A DNA stretch of 54,941 nt from positions 1 through 54,941 of the forward strand of contig QKFK01000141.1 of NCBI GenBank assembly GCA_003252195.1. The letters run 5' to 3'. This stretch comes from Rhodospirillales bacterium (GTDB taxonomy: Bacteria; Pseudomonadota; Alphaproteobacteria; QKFK01; SZUA-500). The translations under genes and the position numbers were made by a program. Below are positions 8,935-39,350 of the stretch, in pieces. The notes under the pieces were generated by a model that did not search any database, had not been told where the DNA came from, and saw only the letters and a list, made by a program, of their open reading frames with translations. Numbering within the stretch: the stretch's first letter is position 1; the number at the start of each line of letters is the position of its first letter.

Positions 8935-8948
8935 GACGACCCCTCCCC

Positions 8949-10784
8949 TTACAAGCTCTTGATATCTTCAATACCGTAACGCTTGAGCGTTTGCAGGGCA
9001 TTGGTTTTGACAACATCATCCTTGAAGCCGTCATCCTTGAACACGACGCGCATAATTTCAGGCTGAAGCTCTTCTTTCAATGCGCCAATGCCATTCACCA
9101 CATCCATGTTGATATCCTTGTCCAGACAAACAACCAGAGCGCCCAGACCGATAGAGTAAACAGTCTTTCCGGCAATGCTTCGTGTTTCAATCGGCACGGT
9201 TAGATCAAGGCCATATTTCAGAAGAAGCTCATAAAGTACATCCTCGCTGGAGCGATCCTGTTTGATATAGTCAACGGCATTCAGAAGATCTGCTTCAAGC
9301 GTATCAAAATCCGCCTCCCATCGTTTGATGTTGGAGCTGTCCAGTTTAAACACTTTGAAGCCAAGATCGCCTTTGTAATCAGGGTTTTCTTCTTGAATTT
9401 TCTTTGCCGCACGGCGGATACGTTCTTTGGAAATATCAGCAATATTTTTATAACCAGATTTAAATGCTTCTGATTTCTCATCTGTAGTTTCAGGTAATTG
9501 AACAGAAATATGACGACGGCTGCCATTATCATCAACATTTAGTTGCATAACCGTATTTGCTGTTGTTCCTGAACCAGCAAAAAAATCCAGAACTATGGCA
9601 TCTTTATCTTCTTCTATCCCTTGCACGACAAGTTCTTTAATGAGTGCCGTAGGTTTAGGAAAATCAAAGGCTTTAAAGCCAAAAAGCTCATCAATTTCTT
9701 TTGTTCCATCTCTAGTGTAAATGTCTTTAGCAACAATAGAAGAGAAGCCAGTATATTCTTGTTGGAGTTCGTTTAAAAATAATTTTCTCCTTGGCCTTCC
9801 ATCTTCTTTTTCAGGCCAAATAATCTTATTTTCGGCGATCAAATTGTTCATAGTATTTTGATCGTATCTCCACCCCATTTTAGGTTTACCATAGTTTATA
9901 TTGTTTTCTGGATTTATAAGATCATAATGGCAATTTGGCCTTTGATCCTGAGGCAAAATACCGACCATGTTTGCGCTTGACCAATCTCCTCTGGGATCAT
10001 TATCGGGATTTTTATATTGATCAGTGTTCCTATCTGCTCCCCGTATCTTTCTTCCATAAACAATAATATATTCGTGATCTATAGATGCTCCAGTGACATT
10101 TCTATTATCTTTGTTTTGACGGCTTTTCCAAACAAATTGAGCAATGAAATTTTCCTCCCCAAAAACTTCGTTGCAAACTTTTTTCAAATTATCAGCTTCG
10201 ACATCATCTATCGAAATAAATATAGCTCCATCATCACGGAGAAGGTTTCTAGCCAATTTCAGGCGTGGGTACATCATGTTCAGCCAGTTGGTATGATAAC
10301 GTCCAGCCGCACTGGAATTCGTTCCCATTTTCTTGCCTTCACTATCGAGCTGTCCCGTCAATTCAAGATAGTTTTTTACGCCATCCTTAAAATCATCCTC
10401 ATAAACGAAGTCATTCCCTGTATTGTAAGGTGGGTCGATATAGATCATCTTCACTTGTCTGTGATATGATTTTTGCAGGAGCTTCAAGACTTCAAGGTTG
10501 TCACCTTCAATAAACAAATTCTGCGTGGTGTCCCAATCTACACTTTCTTCCTTGCATGGGCGGAGCGTTCCTGTGCTTGGTGTTTGTGCTAACCTGCCTG
10601 CCTTGCGTTTGCCATGCCATGTGAAGTTATAATGATCTTCATCTTCCACCACATAATTGCCAAGCAATTCCTGCAGCTGATCAAATTTGATTTTTCCTTC
10701 AGAAAACACTTCGGGAAACAGCTCCTTAAGCTGTTGAATATTCTGCTCCACAATATCCATGCTCTTGCCGTCTAGTTTTTCCAT
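8949..10784 (-). CDS. mod: Type III-like DNA methyltransferase Mod (N6-A/N4-C beta class)
   Basis: IYIDPPYNTGNDF (DPPY, motif IV) precedes VLDFFAGSGTTANTV (FxGxG, motif I). Confidence 0.85.
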   Translation of the reverse strand: MEKLDGKSMDIVEQNIQQLKELFPEVFSEGKIKFDQLQELLGNYVVEDEDHYNFTWHGKRKAGRLAQTPSTGTLRPCKEESVDWDTTQNLFIEGDNLEVLKLLQKSYHRQVKMIYIDPPYNTGNDFVYEDDFKDGVKNYLELTGQLDSEGKKMGTNSSAAGRYHTNWLNMMYPRLKLARNLLRDDGAIFISIDDVEADNLKKVCNEVFGEENFIAQFVWKSRQNKDNRNVTGASIDHEYIIVYGRKIRGADRNTDQYKNPDNDPRGDWSSANMVGILPQDQRPNCHYDLINPENNINYGKPKMGWRYDQNTMNNLIAENKIIWPEKEDGRPRRKLFLNELQQEYTGFSSIVAKDIYTRDGTKEIDELFGFKAFDFPKPTALIKELVVQGIEEDKDAIVLDFFAGSGTTANTVMQLNVDDNGSRRHISVQLPETTDEKSEAFKSGYKNIADISKERIRRAAKKIQEENPDYKGDLGFKVFKLDSSNIKRWEADFDTLEADLLNAVDYIKQDRSSEDVLYELLLKYGLDLTVPIETRSIAGKTVYSIGLGALVVCLDKDINMDVVNGIGALKEELQPEIMRVVFKDDGFKDDVVKTNALQTLKRYGIEDIKSL

Positions 10785-10813
10785 TATATACTCCTCGTAA
10801 ACAATCTTATACT

Positions 10814-11101
10814 CTACACATACTCAGCTGGATAAACCAATCTAGCGTTATCTTTTTCTATAAAAATATCTTCAACCTCAATACACGACACCAACCCTTT
10901 AATACTCCAAGGATTAGCAGCCATAGGTTCTCCTGGCACCAATGCCACTGCACAAGCAAAACTTCTTCCTGCAAGCATCCTTGCCTGACGTTCATCTTTT
11001 GCCACAAAAGTTGCCTTGCCTTTATATATACTAGCCTTCCAATTATGGTTATCCCGTCTATCTTCAACAGGTGATAGCTCAAATACTTTTAGTTCATCCA
11101 T
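10814..11101 (-). CDS. Hypothetical 95-aa protein
   Basis: ORF co-directional with the operon, lying between the HEPN-like gene and mod. No recognisable motif. Confidence 0.4.
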   Translation of the reverse strand: MDELKVFELSPVEDRRDNHNWKASIYKGKATFVAKDERQARMLAGRSFACAVALVPGEPMAANPWSIKGLVSCIEVEDIFIEKDNARLVYPAEYV

Positions 11102-11143
11102 AATATTTTCTCCAATTAAATTTTTATGTAAGATTATTACACA

Positions 11144-11914
11144 TCAGAAGGGGATTTCATCATCAAATTCTCTTATTTCAACAGGATATTCTATTTCATA
11201 ATAATTAAGTAAGAACAACCCTACTGTAGATACAGAGTTTAAGATAAACATTGCATACAAAGGGTTATCAATGATTTCTCTATCCGTACCATGAGCGTTA
11301 GTATTTTCGCTTCTAATATTCTCTACGGCTTGTGCCACACTTATCAAGCCAGAGGCTATATTCCTTAAATTACCATTAAGATCTTTATCAGGATATAATT
11401 TAAACTGCTTTAAAATGTGTTGCGTTAATTTATATAGTGTTAACTTACTATTGCATGGTTCAATCCTATCATCTGAGCATATTCTTTTTATTATTAACTC
11501 TAAAGCAGAATTTGCCATCATAACAGCAGCAGCTGGCTCTGAAGCGACTTTTTCAAACGCTTTATTAAATACATCTCCGACATTTTCGTATCTATCAGCT
11601 AATACCCCTTTTATTTCAGCAACAGCATATATTAGACCTGGCACTTCAATACCTAAGTCAACAGCAATCTGCATAAGCAACTCATCACCCATAGTATCCA
11701 GAGTTGCAGAAAGATTTATTTGATCTTTATCATTTAATATGACTGTGAAATTCTCATCACAGCATCTTCCATAATCGTCTGAGAAAACTTTATGCCAACG
11801 TTTTATATATCTTGATGCATTTTTATAAGAACTGTACTTTTCCCATATTGCCTTTTCAATTCGATCAATGATATCTATCATAGCAGATGGAGAAACAAGA
11901 ATATCACTCATCAC
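11144..11914 (-). CDS. Abi_C-type HEPN-like protein (putative abortive-infection RNase)
   Basis: The C-terminal NIRSENTNAHGTDREI fits the HEPN Rx4-6H motif and the RN..HG signature of the Abi_C family. 4-nt overlap with the upstream gene. Confidence 0.55.
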   Translation of the reverse strand: MMSDILVSPSAMIDIIDRIEKAIWEKYSSYKNASRYIKRWHKVFSDDYGRCCDENFTVILNDKDQINLSATLDTMGDELLMQIAVDLGIEVPGLIYAVAEIKGVLADRYENVGDVFNKAFEKVASEPAAAVMMANSALELIIKRICSDDRIEPCNSKLTLYKLTQHILKQFKLYPDKDLNGNLRNIASGLISVAQAVENIRSENTNAHGTDREIIDNPLYAMFILNSVSTVGLFLLNYYEIEYPVEIREFDDEIPF

Positions 11915-12663
11915 AACAACCTTTCTAAGTCATTTATTTTTATAGAGGCCTCTTTTATCAAAACATTTAAATCAAGCTTTTTATTAAATTGTGTCTCCTT
12001 CTTAAGCATGGAACGTAGTTCCGTTACTTTTCTTTCTAACTCGGCTATTTTAATTAGTTTTTCCCGGCGATCAATGACGCCATCTGCAGACACAACAAAA
12101 TATTGGCCACTACGCGATGATGAGTTAAGAGCAATGACACGATTTTTAATATCTGTGTAGAAAGCGTAAAAATTAACAAAAGATAAGTTCTTAACTGCCA
12201 TATCCTGCATAAACTTCTGCTGGGCTTCGTTTGGTGCATCAGGATTAAACCACTCGGTTATCCAAGAGTCTTCAATCACCCATTTGGATTTGTCGGCCTG
12301 ATTGATCCTTTTGTCGGCAACGCTAATCGCTATCGTATCCGCAAAGCTAAAAACAAGCATGACCGGATACGGAATAGCTTTATTCACAAAGGAGGCAATT
12401 CGCTGGGCGCGCGCTATGCTGGTCAGGTCAATCTGGATAATCGCGATTTCATCATATTCGCGCACATCATCCCGGTAAGGTTCGATATTGAGAGTGGATG
12501 GTTTTAGCGTATAAACCCATCGGATTTTATCAATGTCATCCTTAAGGGCTTTTTTATCCGTGATATCGAGATCAGCATGTTCCTGAAACAGCTTTTTGAA
12601 TAGCGGCTTGTTCAGCACACATTTCCCTGGGATGGCCATGTAATCATAAAAGGTCTGCGTCAT
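11911..12663 (-). CDS. DUF4391-like protein (helicase-associated, function unknown)
   Basis: 250 aa. Translationally coupled (ATGA overlaps) to the SNF2 helicase upstream. Assignment rests on size, synteny and remembered family features, not on a search. Confidence 0.45.
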   Translation of the reverse strand: MTQTFYDYMAIPGKCVLNKPLFKKLFQEHADLDITDKKALKDDIDKIRWVYTLKPSTLNIEPYRDDVREYDEIAIIQIDLTSIARAQRIASFVNKAIPYPVMLVFSFADTIAISVADKRINQADKSKWVIEDSWITEWFNPDAPNEAQQKFMQDMAVKNLSFVNFYAFYTDIKNRVIALNSSSRSGQYFVVSADGVIDRREKLIKIAELERKVTELRSMLKKETQFNKKLDLNVLIKEASIKINDLERLL

Positions 12664-15600
12664 GCTTGCGTCTCCCGAATGATCAGATAGCTGATGACCT
12701 CAAAATCTTCGAGGCTTGAGAAGTGATCTTGTGTGAGGGAAGTGCCGCCACGACTGAACAGGCTTTCGATGCCTTTTTCTTCAGTTTTCCCGATAACGGA
12801 TTGAATGGCAGTTTCCAGCATGAATTGGTATGCGCCCATGTCCTTGCCGTTCCGGGTGGCATCATTCAGATCTTGGACTGCTGTTTCATCGATGACCTTA
12901 TTCATGGCACAGAGCTTTTTGAAGATATCGAGGCTCTTTTTGCTCTGCAGGTGGTTATAGACAACGTTGCCATCTTCGGCCACATAAACCATGTAATATG
13001 GAGATAGGGCATAATGCGGGTCAAACTCGACTTTGCCGTTAATGTCTCTCAGGCAGAAGATGGTGCCTGGGACGATCTCATTCATGCTTTTGCTGACAGC
13101 GGCATAAAAACCAGAAGGCGAACGCTCAAGTTGATCCATGTTGTCCTTCATGAAGCCTGATAAATCCATGCGGAAATCATTCAGCGTCATATCGGTGATA
13201 GACACACTGCCATCCATATCTTCAAGATCAAGAACGGAATCTTGAAGCTGCTTCATTTGGCGGCGGCGGTATTCTAGATCATTCATCTGTTTCTTTTCGT
13301 CATAATCAATGACGTTTTCTTCACCAGTTGCAGAAATATCGAGAAGCACCATACGACCACTAACGCGGGCTTCAAGGTTGATATATTCGTCCAGCTCCAT
13401 ATTTGGCCAGAAATTGGCAAGCTGGATCGCATCGTTGCGAGAGCCTAAACGGTCAACACGACCAAAACGCTGGATAATCCGCACCGGATTCCAGTGAATA
13501 TCGTAGTTAATGAGCATGTCACAATCCTGCAGGTTTTGTCCCTCAGAAATACAATCTGTCGCAATCAAAATATCAATTTCTGTTGTTGCCAATGCATCTA
13601 TCTTAGCTCTATCTTTTGAAATTGGTGAAAAGTGAGTAAGGATATTATTCAGATCTTTGTCTATACCTTTAATAGTACATTGATTTGAGCCTGCCCCAGT
13701 AACCAGCGCCGAATGTAAACCTAGATTTGACAGTGCCCAATCAGCAATGTTTTTATAAAGATAGTCCGCAGTATCTGAAAATGCTGTAAAAATAACAACC
13801 TTTTTATTGCCAATGTTAATCTGATTATTTTCTTTATTAATTATAACTTCTTTTAATTTCAGTAATTTTGCATCCTCTGTTGCTGTTACCTTAAGAGCCT
13901 CTCCATGCAAACTCGCAAGAAGATGCAAATCATCTTCTAAATCCTGCCTCCAACGGTATAAGTCCATATCTTGAATAAGAATTTTTGTTTTGTTTCCTAT
14001 TAGATAATCCTCAAGCATTGGATCATCCACTTCAATATCTTCAATACTCAGCTCTTCAAATTCTGAATTCTCATGCCTATCAATTTGTTCTAATATTTTT
14101 TGTATCTTATCATGAATTTTTCCAACAGTTTGGGCAAACGAGTTAATAGAGCTTTCCATACGTTTAAGCATATTCACACGCATCAAATGAACCAAACTAC
14201 GTTCACGGTCAACTTGCCTAAAAACAGAAGCACCACCCTGCACTTCTTGATCGTACTTACGACTATATTCTTCCTTTTTATCGTCCCTAACATATTCCAA
14301 CGGGGCATATGCTCCTAGGTTCAACCTTTTAATGGATAAATTAACATCCTTCAAATGTGGAAAATTGCCATTTATATCTATATCAGATTTTATATTTACA
14401 GGCTTCAAACGCTCTGGGAACTTCCCCACTTCGCTTACATCATAATATTTTTCTATATGCTTTCTTGAACGAGCAATAGTCAATAAATCCAGAAGTTTAA
14501 AATAACCAAAATTCATACTCTCCAAAAGAGTTTCTGTTCTACGATCATTCTCTGGCAATTTAAGCCACTGATTAAACTTTGTCTGGGCTACCTTCAAAGT
14601 ATGTTCAATGCTAGATATGCCATAATCCTTCAAAGAATAGTCTCGTCCCTCCGTTATGAACGCAACCTGATTCTTAAGATCATTCATCCTATTATTAACT
14701 GGTGTTGCAGAAAGCATAAGAACTTTTGTCTTCACTCCAGCTCTAATAACATCATCCATTAATTTCTGATATCTATTTCCACCATCTTTTTTGCTACCGC
14801 TATTCCTAAAATTATGAGACTCATCTATTACCAACAGGTCATAGTTACCCCAATTAATAGTTTCTAGATTAATTTCTCCTGATCGTCCTTTTTTACGACT
14901 TAAATCTGTATGATTTATTACATCATAATTAAACCTATCCTTTGAGAGCAGGTTACGCTTATCATTTATTGTATATATAGTCCAATTTTCTCGTAACTTC
15001 TTTGGACAAAGCACCAGCACCCTATCGTTACGTAGTTCATAATATTTAATTACAGCCAAAGCTTCAAAGGTTTTACCCAAACCAACACTATCCGCTATAA
15101 TACAACCATTATATTTCTCAAGTTTATCAATAGCCCCTAGAACACCATCTCTCTGGAATTTATACAACTTATTCCATACAATAGTATCTTTAAAACCTGT
15201 TCTTGAACGAATAATGCTCTCTTCATTTATATCCTCTAAATAATCTCTAAATATATTATAGAGGGTAATAAAATAAACTAAATCAGCAGACTTATCTTCT
15301 GATAAATACTCAAGATGTGCTACAAGCTCGTTCTTAATATTTTGAGTAGCTTTAGCATCATTCCAAATCGCATCAAACCATTGGAGAAGCTGTTGTGTTG
15401 TTTCTGCATCGGATATACCCATATTGATTTCAAAAGAGTCAGACCTAACCTCACCAAGACCTGACGCCGTAAAGTGCGAACCACCTTGCACAACGAAACT
15501 ATTATTTTCATTTTTTATATGATACATATTTTGAGGTGGAAACGACATTTGCCCAGATATAGCTTTTATTCTAGCGTTTTTTTTCACCCAATCCATACAC

Positions 15601-15857
15601 TCTTTTGCTATCTGTTTTTGATCAAGCCTATTTTTTAATATATTCTCTTGATAAACACCTGATAAAGATTGCAATGATACTTTATCCCAACGGGACATCA
15701 TCAGCCTAAAGTCTTTTACCCTAAAAAGCTCTTTTTTTAACGCAGAAAATCCGTATATAGTAAACAAACCAGATAAAATCGATAACTTAGAATCCATATC
15801 AACTCTAGATCTAATTTCTGGCAAAACTTTTCCATGTGATTTATTATCAAGTAGCAT
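12660..15857 (-). CDS. SNF2-family helicase with N-terminal degenerate PLD-like domain
   Basis: DSVGLGKTFEA (motif I), VIDESHNFRN (motif II), MLSATPVNN (motif III) and WNPVRIIQRFGRVDRLGS (motif VI). The N-terminal GGSHFTASGLGE is PLD-like but lacks the HKD residues. Confidence 0.8.
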   Translation of the reverse strand: MLLDNKSHGKVLPEIRSRVDMDSKLSILSGLFTIYGFSALKKELFRVKDFRLMMSRWDKVSLQSLSGVYQENILKNRLDQKQIAKECMDWVKKNARIKAISGQMSFPPQNMYHIKNENNSFVVQGGSHFTASGLGEVRSDSFEINMGISDAETTQQLLQWFDAIWNDAKATQNIKNELVAHLEYLSEDKSADLVYFITLYNIFRDYLEDINEESIIRSRTGFKDTIVWNKLYKFQRDGVLGAIDKLEKYNGCIIADSVGLGKTFEALAVIKYYELRNDRVLVLCPKKLRENWTIYTINDKRNLLSKDRFNYDVINHTDLSRKKGRSGEINLETINWGNYDLLVIDESHNFRNSGSKKDGGNRYQKLMDDVIRAGVKTKVLMLSATPVNNRMNDLKNQVAFITEGRDYSLKDYGISSIEHTLKVAQTKFNQWLKLPENDRRTETLLESMNFGYFKLLDLLTIARSRKHIEKYYDVSEVGKFPERLKPVNIKSDIDINGNFPHLKDVNLSIKRLNLGAYAPLEYVRDDKKEEYSRKYDQEVQGGASVFRQVDRERSLVHLMRVNMLKRMESSINSFAQTVGKIHDKIQKILEQIDRHENSEFEELSIEDIEVDDPMLEDYLIGNKTKILIQDMDLYRWRQDLEDDLHLLASLHGEALKVTATEDAKLLKLKEVIINKENNQINIGNKKVVIFTAFSDTADYLYKNIADWALSNLGLHSALVTGAGSNQCTIKGIDKDLNNILTHFSPISKDRAKIDALATTEIDILIATDCISEGQNLQDCDMLINYDIHWNPVRIIQRFGRVDRLGSRNDAIQLANFWPNMELDEYINLEARVSGRMVLLDISATGEENVIDYDEKKQMNDLEYRRRQMKQLQDSVLDLEDMDGSVSITDMTLNDFRMDLSGFMKDNMDQLERSPSGFYAAVSKSMNEIVPGTIFCLRDINGKVEFDPHYALSPYYMVYVAEDGNVVYNHLQSKKSLDIFKKLCAMNKVIDETAVQDLNDATRNGKDMGAYQFMLETAIQSVIGKTEEKGIESLFSRGGTSLTQDHFSSLEDFEVISYLIIRETQA

Positions 15858-15859
15858 AT

Positions 15860-16054
15860 TTATTTTGACCCCTCATCAATTCTGAATTGAGCCACTATCC
15901 ACCTATTTACATCAATTTCACGGAAACGCCAACTACCACCAACCTTAAACCCAGGCAATTTACCTTCAGCAGTTAGACGATATGTTGTTTTTTCATTTAG
16001 CTTGAGGTACTCGGCAACCTCTTTAACCGTTAATATACCACTTTTCATAACCAT
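15860..16054 (-). CDS. Small HTH DNA-binding protein (excisionase/MerR-like HTH_17)
   Basis: LTVKEVAEYLKLNEKTTYRLTAEGKLPGFKVGGSWRFREIDVNRWI. The likely start is the internal ATG at 16054 or 16048 rather than 16132. The stop lies 2 nt before the SNF2 start. Confidence 0.7.
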   Translation of the reverse strand: MVMKSGILTVKEVAEYLKLNEKTTYRLTAEGKLPGFKVGGSWRFREIDVNRWIVAQFRIDEGSK

Positions 16055-16164
16055 CCCATCATGTAAAAAACAACTGAGAAAATAACGGAAAATTACTGAA
16101 CAATCAAGAGCAATAACAAAAACATAATACATAAATATTCAAAATAGATAATGTTCAATAACTA

Positions 16165-19023
16165 TTAACGATCAATCTTCATTGCCTTATCAAGTGCACT
16201 AATAAATTTATTATCATTTTCAGGTCTTACAGCTTCCACCGTTTTAACTCTACAAAGTGGCAAATTTATCTTTTCCATTATGCTATCTTTTTTATTATCT
16301 CTAATTATTTGCTTTTCTTTTTCTCTATGTAGCACACCATCAACCTCAACGACTAACACAGGCTCTTTATCCATTTTATTAAAAATCAAAAAGTCAACAT
16401 GTGCAAAGGGATGCTTAGCAAATTTCGTCTCTTCTTCATTCAAAGAAGAATAGTCTTTTATAATGGAATATAGAGGAACATGAAGCACACATTTTAGAGC
16501 ACTGTATTTGGGATCTTTTAAAATATTTTCTATAACATAATAAAAACAATTTTCTGAAGGATGTTCTGAAACCTTTTTAATCTGCTCTTCAATTTTCAAT
16601 AGTTTTTCTGAGTATTCACTATACATCAAATCAAAAACAGATATTATCTGGCTCTCTGTAACAGCACTTTCATCTGAGTTATACTCAATGTATCGGATTA
16701 AATTACCCAAATTGCTGCCATGTTGTCTGTAAATACTATCAGACACGACCAACATAAACTTATTCACGCTACGCGATACAGCCACATTAACAAGATGCTC
16801 GTCATCGATGAAACCATTAATATCATCTTCTACGGTTGAAAAAATTATTGTATCTTTTTCTCGCCCCTGGAATTTATGAACAGTATCAACCTCAATATCA
16901 CTATCCTCTTTTAATATATTTTTTAAAGATACGAGTTTACCTGGTTTAGACGTATCTTTGTACGACACGCCTGATAACACAGCAATCGCCTCTTTAACCT
17001 GCTCCTTGTACGGAGTGATTATCCCAATACCTTTTACAATATCACCCCTTGCCAAAATCTCATCATTAATTACATCAACTTGACGCCTATTATACTTACT
17101 AGATTTATCATTTTTAGTAGATTTTCTGACATGGCGACCTTTTACCGTTTTATAAATCTCTAACGGCTTAGGATTTGAGTTTTCATTAGTCATTATAACT
17201 AGCTGATTATCGTAGAATTGCTTATTGCAGAAGCCGATTATCTTTGGATTACATCTATAGTGCTCTTTTAATAAAGTTGTGGCAATTTTATCCCCGTAAA
17301 GAGCTGAAAGAGACGATATTATACTGTGTTTAGTATAATTATACTGAATAGGTATTAAATCAGCTTGATACAACTTCCTATCTTCTTTAGCATTATCCTT
17401 AGAAACAATATGTGGCAACTGCTTCTCATCGCCAACTATAACAATATTTTTGCAACAATACATTGATAGCGTGGCTGTCACCAAATCAACCTGAGATGCC
17501 TCATCAATTATCACATAATCAAACATATAATTTTGTGGAATTGAGTTTAATATTGAGTTAGTCGTACTTAAGATTACTGGATAATCATTGATAAAGCTCT
17601 TAAAATCACGAAAAAAGCCATATTGCTCATAGTTTTTTCTTTTATTTTCACTGTATCTTTTACAAAGCAATGACTTAAACAGCTTCTCTGAGTTTGCAAC
17701 ATACTCATTCATCAGAGCTTCGCTTTTTCTACCCTTATGCTTTTTCTCAATATGCCGTATCTTAGACTGTTTCTCAGATATAGCTCTGATATAGTACATC
17801 CCTTTAAGAGAAAGCATAATTTTTGATATATTATTATCTATAAAGGCAAAGCTATAAACACCAAACCTTAGAAATAAAATTAACTTGGTCAGCTTATCTG
17901 GTTTATAAGAATAATTTTCTAGCAGCATCATTAAATCAATAAGCTTATTTGACCCCCAATTATTAAATAAAGCCATGCCACGCAAAGACATTATTTGCGA
18001 ACCAAAGTTCTTAAAAAAATGTTTTTTCTCCACTTCAAGCTCAGCCATATCTTCTTTTAATTTGGCCTTTATGTTTTGATCTTCTAAGAATTCAGCTAAC
18101 ACATGTGCCGTATTGGCAATGTCGTTTTCAAGGTTTTGAGTTTCTTTATTGGTTTTACTCCAATCATTTATATCAGGTACTTCCGACTGTTTACACTCAA
18201 AAAACTCTTTTTTATTATCAGAATTACCAAGCATTGCAGTTAAAAAGCCTACCCCTTGTTTTTCTAACTTCTCTTGAACATTGCTTGTTGCTGAATTATT
18301 ACCAGAAACAACAGCTACAGATTTATTATTTACAACAATATTAGCTATCAAATTTAATATAGTCTGGGTTTTACCTGTTCCAGGAGGACCCTTAATAATA
18401 CTAATTTGGTTTTCAAGAGCATTCTTAACCGCATCTCTCTGACTTAGATTAATTCCAAATGGGAATATGGGCACTTCATGGTGTTTATTTTTAGCGATTA
18501 CATTCTTTGACAGGTATGTACCTAACACTTGTTTTTCATTTATGTTTTTTATTTTATCGTATTGTCTGGATAAGTAACCATGTTCACCTTGAGGTTGCAT
18601 ATCATCTTCATTTACCGTTTCTTTTTTTGTATCACTCTCAAGTATTGGGGCTAATTTTTTAAAATACTCAAATATATTTTTTGCATCATTGTTGTTAAGA
18701 CATGAAGGTACAAGCTCAACCTGTTTTTTATCATACAGCATAGCGCCATCATTCCTATTTATTACTTTAACATAATCACCAAAGTCTAACACTTCTCCGT
18801 CTATAAGAAAATCATCTTCATAAACAGCAAATTTAGACGCGTCTATGTTTACAGGATTCTCAAAAAACAAGACGTTATGCGAATTATAAATATATCTCTT
18901 ACCACCATTAAACTGCACGGCTACTTTATTATGTAACGAAAAATCTACACTACAAACTCTTGCTGTAGCATCTTCAAATACGCCATCCCGTTTTAATAGA
19001 ACTAAGCTAGTTCTTATATCCAC
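16165..19023 (-). CDS. SF1 (Upf1/DNA2-like) helicase with unknown ~190-aa N-domain and C-terminal DUF2726-type PD-(D/E)xK nuclease-like domain
   Basis: GPPGTGKTQT, VIIDEASQV, VGDEKQLPH, HYRCNPKI, FQGREKDTIIFS and LNVAVSRS helicase motifs. C-terminal HVDFLIFNK...LVVEVDGVLH. Confidence 0.75.
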   Translation of the reverse strand: MDIRTSLVLLKRDGVFEDATARVCSVDFSLHNKVAVQFNGGKRYIYNSHNVLFFENPVNIDASKFAVYEDDFLIDGEVLDFGDYVKVINRNDGAMLYDKKQVELVPSCLNNNDAKNIFEYFKKLAPILESDTKKETVNEDDMQPQGEHGYLSRQYDKIKNINEKQVLGTYLSKNVIAKNKHHEVPIFPFGINLSQRDAVKNALENQISIIKGPPGTGKTQTILNLIANIVVNNKSVAVVSGNNSATSNVQEKLEKQGVGFLTAMLGNSDNKKEFFECKQSEVPDINDWSKTNKETQNLENDIANTAHVLAEFLEDQNIKAKLKEDMAELEVEKKHFFKNFGSQIMSLRGMALFNNWGSNKLIDLMMLLENYSYKPDKLTKLILFLRFGVYSFAFIDNNISKIMLSLKGMYYIRAISEKQSKIRHIEKKHKGRKSEALMNEYVANSEKLFKSLLCKRYSENKRKNYEQYGFFRDFKSFINDYPVILSTTNSILNSIPQNYMFDYVIIDEASQVDLVTATLSMYCCKNIVIVGDEKQLPHIVSKDNAKEDRKLYQADLIPIQYNYTKHSIISSLSALYGDKIATTLLKEHYRCNPKIIGFCNKQFYDNQLVIMTNENSNPKPLEIYKTVKGRHVRKSTKNDKSSKYNRRQVDVINDEILARGDIVKGIGIITPYKEQVKEAIAVLSGVSYKDTSKPGKLVSLKNILKEDSDIEVDTVHKFQGREKDTIIFSTVEDDINGFIDDEHLVNVAVSRSVNKFMLVVSDSIYRQHGSNLGNLIRYIEYNSDESAVTESQIISVFDLMYSEYSEKLLKIEEQIKKVSEHPSENCFYYVIENILKDPKYSALKCVLHVPLYSIIKDYSSLNEEETKFAKHPFAHVDFLIFNKMDKEPVLVVEVDGVLHREKEKQIIRDNKKDSIMEKINLPLCRVKTVEAVRPENDNKFISALDKAMKIDR

Positions 19024-19214: not shown

Positions 19215-21719
19215 ATGGATTTTACAAAATTAACCTCAACTGTTCAAAAAACATTACCGACACATCCTATAAAAGTATTTGAGAGTCTGCCAAGCTTAGA
19301 AAACACCCTGAATGATCTTTGGCGAGGACAAGCAGAAGCTCTTGAGAATTGGCATAAATGCCGAGATAAAAATGATGTTCTTGTTTCTCTTAATACAGGT
19401 GCCGGAAAAACAATCGTAGGTTTACTTATCGCCCAGAGTTTAGTTAACGAAGGAAATGAAAATGTTCTATATGTATGCTCAACTATTGATTTGGTAAAAC
19501 AAACATCTCAAGAAGCTTCTCGGATTGGATTACCTCATACAACTAGAGTGCGAAGAGAATTTAGCAACAAACTATTTGAGTTGGGTAACGGGTTCTGTAT
19601 TACAACTTATCACGCCCTTTTTAACGGTCATAGCTATCTTAGAAAACGTCATTTTCCAGGTGTTATTATTTTTGATGACGCTCATGTTGCGGAAGGGATT
19701 TTGAGGGACGCGTTTACAATTAGAATTGATAGCGCCGAAAAAACAGAATTATTTAACCAGATTGCGGAGTTGTTTACGCCCCATTTCGACGATCTAGGAA
19801 TCTCAGAAAGATTTAAAGACAGTATAAGTAAGGGGCAACATGCCACAGCATTTGTTGCCCCTAGAGGTATCCAGAGAAACAAGAACCAATTATTGCAGAT
19901 TTTAAACAACCATAAGATTTCAACTGATAAAGACCTAAGTTATCCATTTGAACATCTTAAAGACCACCTTGAGGCTTGTGCTGCAGTTTTCACGAGAGGA
20001 GTTTTTGAAATTTCCCCACCGTTTCTTCCGGTTCTTGCAATGGATGTTTTTGAGCAGCCAGTTAAAAGAGTTTATTTATCTGCGACATTGCAATCGCAAA
20101 CTGAATTTATTCGGGCATTTGGGCGAAAACCTCAGGAGGTTATTGTACCTTCTAATGATGCAGGTAATGGCGAGAGGCTTATTATTAATGGACAAGCAAT
20201 ACAAAGTGGTTTTACTGCCGATTTTGTAAAACAGCTCTCTTCATCAAGGAAAGTAGTCATTGCAGTTCCTAATTTCATAGAAGCTCAAAAGTGGTCAGAG
20301 TTGGCCACGCCGTCTAATCCAGATAACTTTTCAAATGATTTAGATAATTTTAGAGCATCACAGAATGGTGCTTTTGTTCTTGTTTCTAGAGTTGATGGTA
20401 TTGACTTACCTTATGAAACATGCAGATTGATGGTAATGGATGGGCTGCCCAGCGGAACCTCTCTTCTTGAACGTTACCAGTGGGAGTTTCTGAGAATGGA
20501 CAATGTGCATGCATCAAGAATTGCCAACAGGATAGCTCAGTTATTTGGTCGTATTAATCGTGGCAGGAATGACTATGGTGTCTTTTTATTGGAAGGACAT
20601 GAATTAAATATATGGTTAGGTAAGGATCGAAATGTGGCTCTTTTACCTCCTTTGTTACAAAAGCAAGTCCTTCTTGGTCGTACTGTTCAAGAGGGTTTGG
20701 GGATTAAAACGCATGCAAGTGTATTGGATGCTATCAATTCTGTTTTGTCTCGTGATAAAACTTGGCTCGATTATTATGAAAGTGAAGTCAAATTAGGCGA
20801 GCTTGACAAAGAACAGGCTGATCGCGCTAAACAAGCTGAGCCAGTTTTAGAAGAAGTCGCAACTTCTGAAGCTAAATATGCGGCGTACTTATGGAACAAA
20901 GAGTATGCAGAAGCACGTATCGAAATAGAAGAATCATCCAACAAAGTAGCACCTATTGACGCACCTCTCGCTGGATGGCACAGCGTTTGGCTGGCAGCTG
21001 CATACGATTTAGAGGGAGATACTGAAAGCGCTGAAAGAGCTTATTCTGTAGCAAGGAAACGTATTGGAGGAGCTATTACTTTGCCTCGAAAAAATTGGAG
21101 CAATATAAATTCAGCGCAATTAGAGCAAAAGAATGAATTTTGCATATCTCTAGAAAATTATCTTGGATTTTCTACAAGCGATAAATGTCAAAAGGAAATT
21201 AATAAAGCAAAAGCTTCATTGAATGGAATAAGCACAGGTAGCACTAATCAAGCTGAAGAAGCTGTAAGGCTTCTGGGTGAAATATTAGGTTTCGATGCAA
21301 CAAGGCCTGACAATGATATAGGCAAAGGCCCTGATGTTTTTTGGGTGAACAATCAAACAAAAGAAGTCTTAGCCTTTGAACTAAAAACCAATAAGAACAC
21401 TCCAACCCGATATAAAAAAGATGATATCGGCCAAGGGCATAATCACATTGCTTGGGTTAAGGAGAATTATCAAAGCTATAATTTGTTGGGATTGCTATTT
21501 ATAGGGCCAGAAATAGGAGTTGTTGAGGATAAGGCCAGTCCATCAGAAAACATGCGTTTTACCGATATTATTAAAACAAAAGCAGTTATGGACGATGTTA
21601 CGGCACTATTATCAGATCTTCTAAGATTAACACCATTAGAAAGAAGCACTGAGATAAGATCTATATCAAAACAACAAAAGTGGGAGCTTAATGATATATT
21701 TAAAAGAATGATAAAATAA
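19215..21719 (+). CDS. SF2 DEAD/DEAH-type helicase with TPR-like middle region and C-terminal RecB-like PD-(D/E)xK nuclease motif
   Basis: NTGAGKTIVG (motif I), IIFDDAH (motif II), LSATL (motif III) and QLFGRINRG (motif VI). C-terminal GPDVFWV...AFELKTNK...QGHNH. Confidence 0.7.
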   Translation: MDFTKLTSTVQKTLPTHPIKVFESLPSLENTLNDLWRGQAEALENWHKCRDKNDVLVSLNTGAGKTIVGLLIAQSLVNEGNENVLYVCSTIDLVKQTSQEASRIGLPHTTRVRREFSNKLFELGNGFCITTYHALFNGHSYLRKRHFPGVIIFDDAHVAEGILRDAFTIRIDSAEKTELFNQIAELFTPHFDDLGISERFKDSISKGQHATAFVAPRGIQRNKNQLLQILNNHKISTDKDLSYPFEHLKDHLEACAAVFTRGVFEISPPFLPVLAMDVFEQPVKRVYLSATLQSQTEFIRAFGRKPQEVIVPSNDAGNGERLIINGQAIQSGFTADFVKQLSSSRKVVIAVPNFIEAQKWSELATPSNPDNFSNDLDNFRASQNGAFVLVSRVDGIDLPYETCRLMVMDGLPSGTSLLERYQWEFLRMDNVHASRIANRIAQLFGRINRGRNDYGVFLLEGHELNIWLGKDRNVALLPPLLQKQVLLGRTVQEGLGIKTHASVLDAINSVLSRDKTWLDYYESEVKLGELDKEQADRAKQAEPVLEEVATSEAKYAAYLWNKEYAEARIEIEESSNKVAPIDAPLAGWHSVWLAAAYDLEGDTESAERAYSVARKRIGGAITLPRKNWSNINSAQLEQKNEFCISLENYLGFSTSDKCQKEINKAKASLNGISTGSTNQAEEAVRLLGEILGFDATRPDNDIGKGPDVFWVNNQTKEVLAFELKTNKNTPTRYKKDDIGQGHNHIAWVKENYQSYNLLGLLFIGPEIGVVEDKASPSENMRFTDIIKTKAVMDDVTALLSDLLRLTPLERSTEIRSISKQQKWELNDIFKRMIK

Positions 21720-21929: not shown

Positions 21930-22490
21930 TTATAAATTAAAAAACATTTTTACGTTCTCTAAAAGCAGACTTTTTTCTTTATTTTCTCTAGTAATTATAC
22001 CCGTAGGCCTTTTAATAAAATCATAAACATGATTTTTCTGGATATTTACATATGTAGAGCTGCCATATGTTGTGTCAACTAACCAACTTGGCCAAGAAAA
22101 ATAAAAAGTATTAAGAATGGTAGATTTTGATAAGTCATATGCAAATGATTTTCTAGTATTCTGCTCTTGAATATTAGAGTATCTTCCTTGAAGTCTATCT
22201 AGATCATACCTAGAATTTATACCAAAGATATTAAAACAATCTCGTATTTTCATAAACTTCACTTCTAATTGGATCTGATCCCCATATATCTTGTATTTTC
22301 CTAAATTGTTACCGTTTTCATCTAACAAAAGCACCTGATATTCTTTACCGCTCAACTTAGCTTCTTTAATTATTGCTGTAGCAACTATTACCTCTTTTGT
22401 TAATTGATAATACATATTAGAAAACACTGTAATCGCAATTATTACACAAACAACCAAGGTAATCGGTACGCCGAAGAGTATGCGTTTCAT
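21930..22490 (-). CDS. Membrane-anchored hypothetical protein
   Basis: N-terminal hydrophobic helix ILFGVPITLVVCVIIAITVF. No other motif. Confidence 0.5.
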   Translation of the reverse strand: MKRILFGVPITLVVCVIIAITVFSNMYYQLTKEVIVATAIIKEAKLSGKEYQVLLLDENGNNLGKYKIYGDQIQLEVKFMKIRDCFNIFGINSRYDLDRLQGRYSNIQEQNTRKSFAYDLSKSTILNTFYFSWPSWLVDTTYGSSTYVNIQKNHVYDFIKRPTGIITRENKEKSLLLENVKMFFNL

Positions 22491-22700
22491 ATTTTACTAT
22501 CCCTATAAGCTCTGATGCTTTTATTTTATATTTATATGTTAGAATGATTATGTTTACAAAATAAATTATAATTAGTATACATTATTAACAATATCAGAAC
22601 AATCAAAACAAAGTAATAACTTCGTATATCATATAACATTTCAAACATAAAAATCATTTACATAGTAGAGACCATCATGTAGATTTAATTGTAGGTATAG

Positions 22701-22800
22701 ATTAGTGTTCGCAGAGCAGCGAACAGGATAATATAAATAAAGCTCAAGAGTATTAGTAATGTTCGTAGAGCCACGAACAGGTTAATATAAACAAAGCTCA
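22701..22800. repeat. Two tandem ~46-49 nt units, each with a 7-bp hairpin (loops AGAGCA / AGAGCC)
   Basis: Unit 1 (22701-22746) has tgttcgc-agagca-gcgaaca. Unit 2 (22752-22800) has tgttcgt-agagcc-acgaaca. A compensatory C:G to T:A change preserves the stem. Both units end in aaagctca. Confidence 0.9.
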
Positions 22801-22816
22801 TATGTACATCTTGCCC

Positions 22817-22841
22817 GCCCCCTTAATGGGGGCTTTATTTT
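22817..22841 (+). terminator. Rho-independent terminator
   Basis: gccccc-ttaat-gggggc followed by tttatttt. Confidence 0.8.
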
Positions 22842-23057
22842 AAGCCTAACATAACTGTAACAACACCTGTAGCACATAGAAGCTTTCAAAATAGGTGGTA
22901 ACATCTCATGTGTAGCGATGTAGCACTTATTTAGACTACATAAACACAAGTATATGAATCATATAATTTCAAAAATTATCAACAGCTATGAATTTATATA
23001 AATATTTATTTTAGAAGTTACCCCAGAGTTACCCGGGCAGCATTTCCGACCAAACAT

Positions 23058-23101
23058 TTAAAAACACAAAACCCTCGAAAACTTAGAGTTTTCAAGGGTT
23101 T
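23058..23101 (-). terminator. Orphaned terminator of the ancestral tRNA-Thr gene, now separated from the tRNA by the island
   Basis: Stem 23069-23082 pairs with 23088-23101 (14 bp, 1 mismatch) and is followed on the minus strand by ttgtgttttt. It lies directly 3' of the tRNA fragment. Confidence 0.6.
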
Positions 23102-23105
23102 GAGA

Positions 23106-23150
23106 TGGTGCCGACACACGGACTCGAACCGCGGACCCACTGATTACAAA
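23106..23150 (-). repeat. attL: 45-nt copy of the 3' part of tRNA-Thr (anticodon loop to CCA)
   Basis: Identical nucleotide for nucleotide to 47282-47326. The flanking bases differ on both sides. Confidence 0.9.
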
Positions 23151-23289
23151 ACAAAACCACGTATTTCCTTAGTTTTTCATAACATCACACGTACTAAAAA
23201 AGTCTTTTCGTTAACTTTTGGTAACAAAAAGAAACGAAAGGAACCAATCATGACGGAATAATTTTTCTGAACTTTTAAGCAAAATAAAT

Positions 23290-23442: not shown

Positions 23443-24405
23443 ATGAAAAAGATAAGTGATTGTAACATCCACCTAAATTTAGGCAAAAGAGACGATACAG
23501 AAATAAACAAACAAATTACTAAATTAAAGGCAAAAGTTTCTGACCTACCACCAAACCAACTAGAACTACTTAAAAGCATGCTTTTCTCTGGAAAGATAAC
23601 AGAAATCATTGAAGAAAGCACCCCTGGCACAGTAATACATTTAATCATTTTGTTAATGTTCGTGGGTTTTCAAGACTGGAAGAATGGCCAAATTACCACA
23701 TATACATCACAAAAACTTCTTGCCGAGATTGAAGGGTGCTCGATAGAAACTATAAGAAAAAGACAAAGAGAGTTAGAACGTCTAGGGCTCTCTTTTGCAC
23801 ATTTTGATCATCAAAACCACCCTGCTGGCAATGAAGCCATAGATTTAACCCCTATTGCACTACAGTATTCCGAACTTAGAAACAAGGCAGAAGAAAAAAC
23901 TCAGGCACGAGAAAGAGAGAGAAAAGAACATCTCACATCAACTACCGAAGCTCTTTTCAATAATAATTGGGGAGCCCCCCAAGAAAAATTGGGACATATA
24001 CTATATACTAAAGATACTAGTAAATTTAAAAAAGAAAGTGAAATTGCTTTAAAGGAAGAAAAACTCAAAACCCAGCAATCTTATTCCAAGCAGAAGCAAA
24101 TATCTCCGTCTTCAAAAGAAATGATCCAGATTATATCTAAGCTCTCGCCAGAAGCTAATGATTGGGATACTGACATATTGGAGCGGATATACAAACAAAG
24201 GCTATATGTTAGCGATAGTGCTTGGGAAATAGCGAAATCAAGACATAGTCAACTCACAAGACTGGCTATTTTACTGGTGTCTCTCGTGCGATACGGCATC
24301 AAGAACCGAACATCATTTGCAGAAAGCATGCTCATGAGGAAGGATATTAACATCTGGATAACAGCAGGCAATCTAGCTGATAAGGGGGTGTGTTATGCAG
24401 CTTAA
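23443..24405 (+). CDS. Hypothetical DNA-binding (HTH-like) protein, possible replication or regulatory protein of the element
   Basis: IEGCSIETIRKRQRELERLGL is a wHTH-like segment. It is the first gene of the mobC-relaxase operon and overlaps mobC by 11 nt. Confidence 0.4.
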   Translation: MKKISDCNIHLNLGKRDDTEINKQITKLKAKVSDLPPNQLELLKSMLFSGKITEIIEESTPGTVIHLIILLMFVGFQDWKNGQITTYTSQKLLAEIEGCSIETIRKRQRELERLGLSFAHFDHQNHPAGNEAIDLTPIALQYSELRNKAEEKTQARERERKEHLTSTTEALFNNNWGAPQEKLGHILYTKDTSKFKKESEIALKEEKLKTQQSYSKQKQISPSSKEMIQIISKLSPEANDWDTDILERIYKQRLYVSDSAWEIAKSRHSQLTRLAILLVSLVRYGIKNRTSFAESMLMRKDINIWITAGNLADKGVCYAA

Positions 24406-24721
24406 AGATAACCACGCCAACAAATCACTTAGGCGGACAGTTAATGTCAAAATACGCCTATTCCCAGATGAATACAAACAGCTAAAACTATTAGCCCAAG
24501 GTTATTCTATGAGTATGTCTGCTTATATCCGCAAATCAGCACTAAAAGAAACCAAGGCTAACTCGACAGCCGTTTTGGCAGGACAGCTGTGCAGGTTGTT
24601 CATAAAGCTTTGCAATATTGAAAAAGACATTTCGAGTAGAACAAAAATATACCAAAGCAACATGCGTGAACTACGGGCTTTTATCGTTAAAACAGAAAAA
24701 TTATTTGAAAGGATTAAGTAA
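24395..24721 (+). CDS. mobC: MobC-type relaxosome accessory protein (ribbon-helix-helix)
   Basis: RTVNVKIRLFPDEYKQLKLLAQGYSMSMSAYIRKSAL. Lies immediately upstream of the relaxase. Confidence 0.75.
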   Translation: MQLKDNHANKSLRRTVNVKIRLFPDEYKQLKLLAQGYSMSMSAYIRKSALKETKANSTAVLAGQLCRLFIKLCNIEKDISSRTKIYQSNMRELRAFIVKTEKLFERIK

Positions 24722-26053
24722 ATGGTTATTGCAGAGAAGATGACTTATATAAACGAAACGCCATCGTTTCAAACCTTAGCAGCATATTTAACTCAAACTC
24801 CAGCCGAAGAAAACAGAATTTTATGTGGCAAAATTTACAATTGTGGAAATCTTGATGGCGAATTTGGCAAAAACGACCTAGATAGATTATATAAAGCTGC
24901 AGACATTATGAAGCATGTTGCTTCAACCAATAATAGGATAATTAAAAGCCCTCTTATCCATTATTCCATTTCGTTTCATCCCAGTGATAGGAATAAACTC
25001 AGCAGGTCTGATATGTTGGATTCATGTGATTATATTGTTGAGCAAAGCAAAATGCACGATTGCCAGTGTATATGTTGTTTTCATGATGACAAACACCATT
25101 TACATTTCCATATAATGTTAAACAGAGTAAAGCCAGCCGATACAACCGTATATGAGGAATGGGGAGACCTACGTGATCTTGAAAAGAAAATGAGAGCCCT
25201 AGAAAACAACTATGGACTAGTTATATGCGAAGGCAATAATTATACGTTTAATGGAAAAGACAAACGTGACTTAGATGAAGAAACCATGCAACGTGAATTA
25301 TTTGAAGCTTTATTAGAAAGATCTTTAAGTAAAAATTTCCTTTTGTTTGGGGACAATGAGAGAATTAAGACTTGTAGAGACGTCCCCATTTTAAATATCA
25401 AGCATATTCCTGAGATAACACAGAGATTGAGTTTAGAAATAATTCGTGCAATTGCAGAAAAGATGTCTTTTAATCTAAAAACAAAAGCTTTCACCCAAAT
25501 GGAAACAGACTTGATAGAAAAAAGCCTTAAACAGGTAAGAGAGATGAAAATAAGTAAGATAGAAAATCTTATAAAACAAGACTACACAGATCTTTATAAG
25601 TCTTCTCCAAACTTAGCTCTACCACACCTACTTGCATCATGGGATCTATCCGATCAAAAGGATCAAGCAAAGCTCTATACAAACATGATAAATCATATAC
25701 ATAAAACATCAGCAACCAACCAAAACAACAGCGAACTTGAAAAGGCTTTTTTTACAGCTCTTACCAAAATGGCAAAAGCCATACAAGGAAAAGCCACAAA
25801 AGATGAACTTAAAGCCAAGGTTGATTTATATGACATTTGCTTAAAAATGCTCGAGAAAGTAGCAGAAATAAGCAAAGGCATCATAAAGTTAAGAATATTA
25901 AAGATACCTTCTGTGAAACAGACTTACAAACAGATTGTTGATCTTAAACATAAAAACCAAACGCTACTAGATTTAACTCTACAACAAGAAGCAGCAAATA
26001 AAGCACCCGTAAAAACAAAGAAGAAACACAAAGACCGTTCTATTGAAATGTAG
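24722..26053 (+). CDS. Relaxase / mobilization nuclease (MobA/VirD2-type)
   Basis: HYSISFHP, plus the histidine triad FHDDKHHLHFHIMLNRV (HxDxxHxH). Confidence 0.8.
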   Translation: MVIAEKMTYINETPSFQTLAAYLTQTPAEENRILCGKIYNCGNLDGEFGKNDLDRLYKAADIMKHVASTNNRIIKSPLIHYSISFHPSDRNKLSRSDMLDSCDYIVEQSKMHDCQCICCFHDDKHHLHFHIMLNRVKPADTTVYEEWGDLRDLEKKMRALENNYGLVICEGNNYTFNGKDKRDLDEETMQRELFEALLERSLSKNFLLFGDNERIKTCRDVPILNIKHIPEITQRLSLEIIRAIAEKMSFNLKTKAFTQMETDLIEKSLKQVREMKISKIENLIKQDYTDLYKSSPNLALPHLLASWDLSDQKDQAKLYTNMINHIHKTSATNQNNSELEKAFFTALTKMAKAIQGKATKDELKAKVDLYDICLKMLEKVAEISKGIIKLRILKIPSVKQTYKQIVDLKHKNQTLLDLTLQQEAANKAPVKTKKKHKDRSIEM

Positions 26054-39293: not shown

Positions 39294-39350
39294 GCATAAA
39301 AAAGCCAATCTTCACTACGGCCAGTTATGGTGCAAGCGTGAGATTGGCTT
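39294..39350 (-). terminator. Intrinsic terminator-like hairpin (13 bp, 1 bulge, 22-nt loop) with U-run on minus strand
   Basis: 39302-39315 pairs with 39338-39350. The plus-strand A-run at 39298-39303 gives UUUUUU after the stem on the minus strand. Confidence 0.55.

Follow-up and report, generated by a model that had tools for sequence, protein, structure and literature searches.

Two repeat arrays and their anatomy

The DNA considered here, called the window below, is the whole of a 54.9-kb contig (54,941 nucleotides; QKFK01000141.1 in assembly GCA_003252195.1) from a low-GC alphaproteobacterium classified as a Rhodospirillales bacterium. It carries two short non-coding loci, locus 1 (22657-22843, plus strand) and locus 2 (39296-39509, minus strand), each made up of a promoter-like site, two tandem hairpin repeats and a terminator. 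Our subject is the relationship of these loci to the catalogued RNA motif 6A (Rfam RF02925) and to tenpI, the repeat RNA antitoxin of TenpIN, which is a toxin-antitoxin system of type III. The features at and just beyond locus 1 are listed first; R1 and R2 designate models built in this analysis, and the folds are minimum-free-energy (MFE) folds.

22657-22685, plus strand: promoter-like site (-35 TTTACA at 22657-22662, 17-nt spacer, -10 TAGATT at 22680-22685), from a consensus scan
22699-22752, plus strand: unit 1, assigned to tenpI/6A (RF02925, 45.7 bits; model R1, 72.6 bits; fold; loop-tail pairing)
22753-22806, plus strand: unit 2, assigned to tenpI/6A (RF02925, 50.1 bits; model R1, 73.2 bits; fold; loop-tail pairing)
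22817-22843, plus strand: intrinsic terminator (GCCCCC-TTAAT-GGGGGC and then a T-run), from a terminator scan and the MFE fold
22844-23105, plus strand: non-coding gap of 262 nt at the position expected for TenpN, without an open reading frame (ORF), ending at a tRNA-Thr terminator (23069-23101, minus strand) and a tRNA 3' fragment
23106-23153, minus strand: 48-nt copy of the tRNA-Thr 3' end, the end of an island and a direct repeat with 47282-47329 (98% identical)

Stem 1 of unit 1 (TGTTCGC/GCGAACA, 7 bp, 22706-22712 with 22719-22725) closes on the loop AGAGCA (22713-22718) and is followed by an A-rich linker, and the tail GCUC (22742-22745) pairs with GAGC of the loop (22714-22717) as a predicted pseudoknot. 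Unit 2 repeats this plan with the stem TGTTCGT/ACGAACA (7 bp, 22760-22766 with 22773-22779), the loop AGAGCC (22767-22772) and the tail GCUC (22796-22799) paired with loop bases 22768-22771, also GAGC. The stem-closing pair is C:G in unit 1 and T:A in unit 2, a double, compensatory change by which pairing is kept. In both units AAAGCTCA stands 3' of the A-rich stretch (22739-22746 and 22793-22800), and the terminator hairpin GCCCCCTTAATGGGGGC with its T-run begins at 22817, 16 nt past the second copy. The 7-bp stems, the two loops and the compensatory change had all been described in the original prediction, and the coordinates and the fold bear them out; the terminator scan, the fold and inspection of the ORFs likewise agree with its GC-rich terminator 16 nt after the unit end and with its finding of no ORF at the locus, where we saw none on the plus strand. 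Its two direct repeats do lie in tandem behind the promoter-like site, but their period is 54 nt, not 46-49 nt. At 42/54 identical positions (78%) they are too diverged for Tandem Repeats Finder (TRF), which did not detect them. Both hairpins reappear in the MFE fold of the locus, as does the terminator; the fold has z = -3.95, and 0/200 shuffles are equally stable. The promoter-like site matches 9/12 consensus positions, and its spacing to the first unit equals that of the TTGACx/TATATA promoters found in toxin-linked arrays elsewhere. A separate short assembly of the locus 1 region (L016, a Logan contig from SRR7216773) stops exactly where the array starts; the repeat probably made the assembly break there.

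Locus 2 has the same order of parts on the other strand:

39470-39509, minus strand: promoter-like sites (GTAACA-18-TAAAAT at 39509-39480; alternative TTGTTA-17-TATGTT at 39498-39470), from a consensus scan and sequence reading
39403-39458, minus strand: diverged tenpI-like unit A, the upstream one (models R1 and R2; TRF repeat with unit B; fold; loop-tail pairing)
39354-39408, minus strand: diverged tenpI-like unit B, the downstream one (Rfam 6A, 31 bits; model R1, 37.6 bits; fold)
39296-39350, minus strand: terminator, a long hairpin AAGCCAAUCU...AGAUUGGCUU followed by U6, from the MFE fold

The two diverged units together occupy 39354-39458 (minus strand) and are reported by TRF as a 49-nt repeat in 1.9 copies with 86% matches. 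Each has an 8-bp stem (AACCTCGA/TCGAGGTT and AACCTCAA/TTGAGGTT) of a sequence unrelated to that of the locus 1 stems. In unit A, stem 1 (AACCUCGA/UCGAGGUU, 39445-39452 with 39430-39437) carries the loop ACGAGUA (39438-39444), of which ACGAGU pairs with the tail GCUCGU (39410-39415) in a predicted pseudoknot of 6 bp; its tail reads AAAGCUCGU, unlike the AAAGCUCA box of unit B and of the locus 1 units. Stem 1 of unit B (AACCUCAA/UUGAGGUU, 39395-39402 with 39381-39388) encloses the loop AGAGCA (39389-39394), whose pseudoknot partner GCUC falls within 39362-39369. A minus-strand, two-copy recurrence of the unit with a different stem and a terminator had thus been seen correctly, but the AGAGCA loop ascribed to both copies is found in the downstream one; the upstream copy has ACGAGTA with the tail GCTCGT. 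Folded with its terminator, which a simple terminator scan had missed for its overlong loop, locus 2 gives z = -4.86. Between the promoter region of locus 2 and a 127-aa ORF (39695-40078, minus strand) there are four copies of a 20-nt element with a TAACA-N8-TGTTA palindrome (39525-39658; spacings 31, 32 and 51 nt). These elements resemble operators or iterons, and they might regulate the array.

Rfam 6A, tenpI and the link to TenpN

An Rfam scan of the window, a step that the original prediction had proposed, matches both units of locus 1 to RF02925 "6A RNA" over the full 52-nt model and above its curated gathering score of 41.2 bits; what had been put forward as a hairpin family with small-RNA (sRNA)-like loci is therefore not a new one but a catalogued motif, with two loci and four units in the window. 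The features of RF02925 (a hairpin of 6-7 bp, the loop (U)AGAGC(A/C), an A-rich stretch and AAAGCUCA) are all present in the locus 1 units and in unit B, and on model R1 the score of unit B corresponds to E 4.5e-8 (229 kb searched). An exhaustive model search of the window found no units beyond the four in the two arrays. Of the bare pattern AGAGC-N19-23-AAAGCTC the window holds 4 occurrences, where 0.02 would be expected; three of the occurrences are units described here, and the fourth (12912-12946, minus strand), lying inside an SNF2-helicase ORF and having no stem, was rejected as a chance match. Rfam models 6A as a hairpin alone and types it "Gene; sRNA", with its function unstated. The motif is traced to Weinberg et al. 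2017 (PMC5737381), whose main text mentions neither 6A nor toxin-antitoxin systems, the motif description being in the supplement. Our literature search found no paper naming RF02925, a phrase search returning m6A papers alone.

The pattern AGAGC-N8-GG-N-TAAT-N6-AAAGCTC, with the stem left free, was scanned over public genomes, metagenomes and viral contigs. After chance matches without a stem had been dropped (6/14 in genomes, 9/25 in metagenomes), 25 true arrays were kept; their sources are phage contigs, metagenomes from gut and fermentation samples, Fusobacterium, Alkalibaculum and alphaproteobacterial metagenome-assembled genomes. Enough downstream sequence to judge was present for 23 of them, and in 14 of these an ORF of ~145-160 aa that matches the TenpN profile (E 1e-40 to 1e-60) starts 15-190 nt past the array, right after the terminator. 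Against NCBIfam NF047358, named "type III toxin-antitoxin system TenpIN family toxin" and having a cutoff of 90, three of these array-linked ORFs reach 105-146 bits, and NCBI annotates homologues of such ORFs as TenpIN family toxins. Pfam and PADLOC returned no family for them, and in particular no Pfam ToxN match; their sole PDB match, a weak one, is CptN 4RMO, and the NCBIfam CptIN model gives 18.9 bits (cutoff 90). Through Granulicella pACIX905 the array-linked toxin family connects to Blower's original tenpIN list (PMC3401426).

The reverse test, from toxin to array, gave a similar picture. Viral TenpN loci were retrieved by toxin similarity with a 28-sequence alignment (a 4-sequence alignment had found none), and in 18/20 distinct loci one or two 6A matches that pass the gathering score, on the same strand as the toxin, end 45-110 nt short of the TenpN start codon. 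The likeness to type III antitoxin arrays noted in the original prediction is thus upheld, in that the units are Rfam 6A and such arrays precede TenpN elsewhere; the toxins linked to homologous arrays are of the TenpN family, where the original prediction had proposed to look for ToxN/AbiQ/CptN-like genes. In two of the viral contigs a match to RF02924, "skipping-rope RNA", lies a few hundred to 1,400 nt past TenpN (L032, 2068-2140, 64 bits; L057, 3309-3379, 59 bits).

Published tenpI arrays have 1.9-3.0 copies of repeats of 39-57 nt (mean 50.9; PMC3401426), which are non-identical, share a conserved stretch of A and are predicted to fold as an H-type pseudoknot (PMC12283969). The window arrays, one of two 54-nt units at 78% identity and one of 1.9 copies of 49 nt at 86%, fall inside this range, and resemble tenpI (PMC3401426; PMC12283969) further in the about two non-identical repeats of ~50 nt, the clear terminators, the hairpin with its A-stretch and the predicted second helix; promoter-like hexamers stand where a tenpI promoter would be expected, but they are weak. 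Membership of the ToxI or CptI families was considered and rejected, the window repeats being 49-54 nt as against ~36 or 40-48 nt and the linked toxins hitting the TenpIN model, not that of CptIN. Because TenpN directly follows such arrays, because the reverse test succeeds in 18 of 20 loci and because the published tenpI anatomy is matched, we conclude from sequence comparison that Rfam 6A units are the predicted antitoxin repeats, tenpI, of one TenpIN branch. The equivalence is partial: the Rfam model finds a Clostridium array (50 bits), gives a toxin-linked Leptotrichia array 36 bits and has no match to the tenpI loci of E. coli, Vibrio, Yersinia or Granulicella.

The original prediction had treated the conserved loops and flanks as separate elements recognised by a protein or RNA, with stems free to vary. 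This does not hold, for the loop and the tail after the A-run are complementary and change together across 56 non-redundant units. The covarying pairs are GAGC/GCUC, GAAC/GUUC, GAGU/ACUC, GGAC/GUCC, GGGC/GCCC, GGAU/AUCC, GUGUA/UACAC, UAGUA/UACUA and GGGAG/UUCCC, along with GAGGU/GUCUC, which includes G-U pairs, and the ACGAGU/GCUCGU of unit A in the window. A cognate loop-tail helix of at least 4 bp forms in 56/56 units, against a mean of 38.5 with permuted tails (0/2000), and with one representative per loop type the figures are 12/12 and 6.5 (0/5000). Among 31 units aligned with a covariance model, each of the 7 pairs in the stem and each of the 4 in the pseudoknot shows double compensatory changes, and 99.7% of the cells are paired, compared with 82% after shuffling (0/500) and 32-52% when the partner columns are slid. 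That alignment is model-made and fitted to the stem, not to the pseudoknot, so the covariation of the pseudoknot is the more independent result. In all four window units the loop-tail helix has 4-6 bp. On this evidence the 6A/tenpI unit is a predicted H-type pseudoknot in which the A-rich strand crosses stem 1, and (G)AGC of the loop and GCU(C) of the tail are jointly conserved because they base-pair as its second helix. With respect to RF02925, which both locus 1 units match over its full length, the pseudoknot and the TenpN linkage are additions to a family filed as a hairpin and an sRNA.

Arrays without toxins and their surroundings

No TenpN homologue was found in the six frames of the 54.9-kb contig by profile search or tblastn, and a profile search of the two gaps downstream of the arrays found no TenpN remnant scoring above shuffles. 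In the 262-nt gap behind locus 1 the TenpN profile reaches 2.3 bits, a score equalled by 25/300 shuffles; downstream of locus 2 there is a convergent gene for an OGG-like protein. No model of ToxN, CptN, TenpN or another type III toxin matched any unannotated ORF of the window. That no toxin ORF follows either copy, as first predicted, is upheld by the ORFs, the six-frame search and the remnant search. Two candidates were discarded: a 37-aa tblastn alignment at 22984-23094, which has two stop codons, lies partly over the tRNA terminator and has a profile score not above shuffles, and weak tblastn matches at 6629-7000 (minus strand), which fall where a type III restriction subunit has its helicase domain. 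At neither locus, then, does TenpN stand immediately downstream on the same strand as it does in tenpI loci, and because no TenpN follows either we file the two as orphan tenpI-type arrays and not as TenpIN systems.

Such arrays are not peculiar to this contig. TenpN is absent from 12/29 assessable arrays of our pattern-based samples (9/23 and 3/6), some of them in phages. The Fusobacterium-type array occurs both with and without the toxin. One array shares its sequence and terminator with a second, the two diverging a few bases before the toxin start (L010 and L011). In two further cases, Alkalibaculum bacchi (L013; array 3487-3542, minus strand) and a fermentation metagenome (L088), a frameshifted TenpN in two overlapping frames lies behind an intact two-unit array. 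Four phage contigs (L001, L066, L079 and L085) have one unit only, behind a TTGACA promoter of its own and between genes for tail fibres; it shares 91% identity with a unit that is linked to a toxin in gut alphaproteobacteria. Compared with L001, L085 has ~620 nt inserted exactly at the terminator after the 6A unit, where homology then resumes; the insert has no TenpN. Two other viral toxin-less arrays (L092, L094) have lost the terminator. The neighbours of toxin-less arrays vary, from an aminotransferase (L005) to the tail-fibre genes of L001. One more viral contig (L097) has a toxin-less single unit (1291-1332, minus strand) ~50 nt past an apparent tRNA 3' end (GGTTCGATTC...CCA), a setting like that of locus 1.

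The two loci lie amid defence genes, at a site of integration into tRNA-Thr. The island (23106-47329, 24.2 kb) is an integrated mobilisable element whose two ends are 48-nt copies, in direct repeat, of the 3' end of tRNA-Thr; tRNA-Thr itself is at 47282-47357, and the right flank is chromosomal. Locus 1 lies ~265 nt outside it and locus 2 inside. It encodes an integrase (45909-47120), NikA with a MobA-type relaxase (24395-26053) and a RepC/helix-turn-helix (HTH)-like protein, and also carries GmrSD, a type I restriction-modification system (HsdM/S/R), an SMC-like ATPase and the OGG-like protein. In one of its ORFs (44284-45507) an 18-nt unit is repeated in tandem 15 times or more (44725-45110), giving a 6-residue repeat in a protein with weak similarity to a cell-wall-binding protein. 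To the left of the island the first 22.9 kb are dense in defence genes, lying at 1084-19023 (minus strand) and 19215-21719: two adjacent DRT-like reverse transcriptases, a type III restriction-modification system (Res 4496-7462, Mod 8949-10784), Fic (7459-7899), an Abi_C protein (11144-11914), a DUF2726 helicase and a DEAD/ResIII helicase, together with a set at 11911-16132 (DUF4391, SNF2 helicase and MAD1-like HTH) that is MADS-like in look. As TenpIN is itself a phage-defence module, pieces of it are to be expected at such a site. The genes next to the arrays have no family assignment: the divergent gene beside locus 1 (21930-22490) encodes 186 aa with a hydrophobic, membrane-anchor-like N-terminal segment, and the 127-aa gene mentioned above is upstream of locus 2. 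The host is an uncultured bacterium, whose PepF reaches at most 55% identity with any other protein; with entries named as Rhodospirillales and Rickettsiales the identity is 46-49%.

Possible leftovers or antidotes

In type III systems, according to published work, the terminator makes the array transcript exceed that of the toxin, the toxin endoribonuclease cuts the array into its repeats, and each pseudoknot inhibits one toxin molecule by binding it. Against this background we regard locus 1 with high confidence as a tenpI/6A array and locus 2 as a likely one, and it is quite probable that both are orphan antitoxin arrays of the 6A sub-class, derived from TenpIN modules that lost their toxins and still able to neutralise a matching TenpN if transcribed. 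The toxin genes would have been deleted in a defence-gene hot spot, as other loci have repeatedly shown, with intact antidote genes remaining. If transcribed, these would yield RNAs of ~150 nt that stay inert until a matching TenpN is made, whether elsewhere in the genome or by an incoming phage, plasmid or island; the array RNAs would then neutralise it.

Several points weigh against this reading. Promoter matches of the grade seen at locus 1 are not rarer than chance, the AT-rich stretch yielding 2 of them where 4.0 would be expected, and the promoter claimed there in the original prediction is therefore backed by its position; those at locus 2 are weak and not above chance either. On the contig sequence the absence of the toxin leaves an antitoxin role apparently tied to no target. 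Relatives of either window locus were absent from the plasmid and phage collections, and those of the locus 2 unit from the viral contigs as well. Unit B stays below the gathering score of RF02925 with its 31 bits (E 9e-4 in a 0.9-kb search), and unit A, which gives no Rfam match, reaches 14.2 bits on R1 (E 3e-4, 138-nt search) and 17 bits (E 0.008, whole window) on R2, a model trained partly on window units. A sub-threshold score such as these is compatible with a genuine tenpI unit, because the Rfam model misses part of the tenpI diversity. The census of toxin-less arrays rests on exact-pattern scans, which detect well-preserved units only. Lastly, binding of TenpI to TenpN, processing and the pseudoknot itself are predicted for this family, and current function would have to be squared with weak promoters, a lack of relatives and nothing that shows purifying selection since the loss of the toxin.

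The alternative that has to be taken most seriously shares the proposed origin and differs over the present: the arrays would be pure relics, neutral remains of TenpIN modules with deleted toxins, inactive and decaying, and we put this at slightly short of an even chance. The loss of a toxin is expected to be tolerable, that of an antitoxin not, and the reading is favoured also by the frequency of toxin-less arrays (12/29), the two frameshifted toxins behind intact arrays and the terminators lost in two viral contigs; compared with the TTGACx/TATATA promoters that toxin-linked arrays have, those of the window are weaker, and both loci sit in fast-turnover defence-island DNA. But stems of full length (7-8 bp) and loop-tail pairing persist in all four units, terminators are kept at both loci, two independent intact orphans of different sequence coexist on one contig, and phage single units with their own promoter have been retained in diverged phages; these points do not amount to a formal selection test. 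The intact units, the terminators, the promoter positions and the two different coexisting orphans mildly favour retention. Granted the tenpI/6A identity, we consider it an even bet that the arrays are neutral leftovers, and hold only tentatively, at rather less than even, that they are currently useful as trans-acting antidotes.

Readings that do without a TenpIN origin fare worse. An independent trans-acting sRNA or protein sponge, with hairpin loops and AAAGCUCA boxes as recognition sites and no relation to toxin-antitoxin systems, would suit the Rfam classification, the promoter-like site and terminator with no downstream gene, and the look of repeated conserved-loop hairpins, which recalls protein-titrating sRNAs. 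It is improbable, in that loop and box covary as a helix and do not behave as independent motifs, the linkage to TenpN is tight and directional (18/20 viral loci; 14/23 pattern-found arrays), and the freely varying loops of the homologues disfavour a shared sequence-specific reader. More doubtful still is a role as antitoxin or regulator for some toxin of another family, unrecognised and encoded next door: neither the 186-aa nor the 127-aa protein has a family assignment and type III-like RNA-protein pairs are diverse, but the two proteins share no similarity, their upstream or divergent placement conflicts with the order array-terminator-toxin, the 186-aa protein begins with what looks like a membrane anchor, and toxin-less arrays elsewhere have unrelated neighbours. 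As to a dispersed REP-like intergenic repeat or a chance pair of hairpins, the possibility under which the original prediction itself would have fallen, the elements are short, palindromic, intergenic and AT-rich, but 55 kb hold four units only, in two arrays, with Rfam matches above the curated threshold, a pattern count far over expectation and homologues, spread over several phyla, that covary and have a constant gene partner; we give it next to no weight.

Returning to the reading of the loci as orphan antitoxin arrays, they can be set beside known systems. They differ from complete TenpIN loci in having no TenpN after either array or on the contig, and locus 2 departs from its tenpI relatives in a wholly different stem sequence and, in one unit, a different loop/tail pair. 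To our knowledge, no natural RNA-only orphan antitoxin of type III has been characterised in a chromosome. The nearest experimental parallel is phage PhiTE, laboratory-selected derivatives of which are reported to evade ToxIN by expanding or capturing ToxI repeats (PMC3475682, as summarised in PMC5086642), and phage escape through RNA antitoxin mimicry or capture has been shown experimentally for ToxIN (PMC5086642). As in the pseudo-ToxI of PhiTE, a type III toxin already resident could be neutralised by toxin-free antitoxin repeats that a mobile element brings in; that case, which is experimentally proven, concerns ToxIN and a phage, whereas the window loci lie in a chromosome and an integrated mobilisable island. 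CptI, for which there is a crystal structure (4RMO; PMC4627078), is described as an H-type pseudoknot in which the run of A residues contacts the neighbouring stem through A-minor interactions (summarised in PMC12283969); its repeat is of the same H type and the CptN fold is distantly related to the array-linked toxins, but CptI belongs with another toxin family, has repeats of 40-48 nt and shows no sequence similarity as RNA. An antidote kept without its own poison, against the toxin of another genetic element, is familiar from anti-addiction modules and phage orphan antitoxins (PMC12548467); those documented are proteins (type II, DarG-like), while the window arrays are RNA. That orphan tenpI arrays form a recurrent RNA-only counter-measure, used by chromosomal islands, mobilisable elements and phages against abortive-infection or addiction modules of the TenpIN kind in competitors or hosts, is a rather unlikely extension. 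If it were true, the two arrays would confer immunity against two different TenpN, and the phage units would be natural counterparts of the PhiTE pseudo-ToxI.

For the family as a whole, the catalogued orphan motif 6A would gain a function as the antitoxin repeat of a TenpIN branch, together with a covariation-supported register for the pseudoknot, said to be absent from the tenpI literature, in which loop bases 2-5 pair with the four nucleotides that follow the A-run. Anyone annotating a genome who meets a 6A match should look for TenpN, whose absence marks a toxin-less array. Some 40% of the sampled arrays, some phage-borne ones included, are toxin-less, which makes the free circulation of RNA antitoxins, in an anti-defence or anti-addiction capacity, a testable idea. 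For this contig the outcome is an ordinary one: two leftovers, or two antidotes, in a defence-island hot spot.

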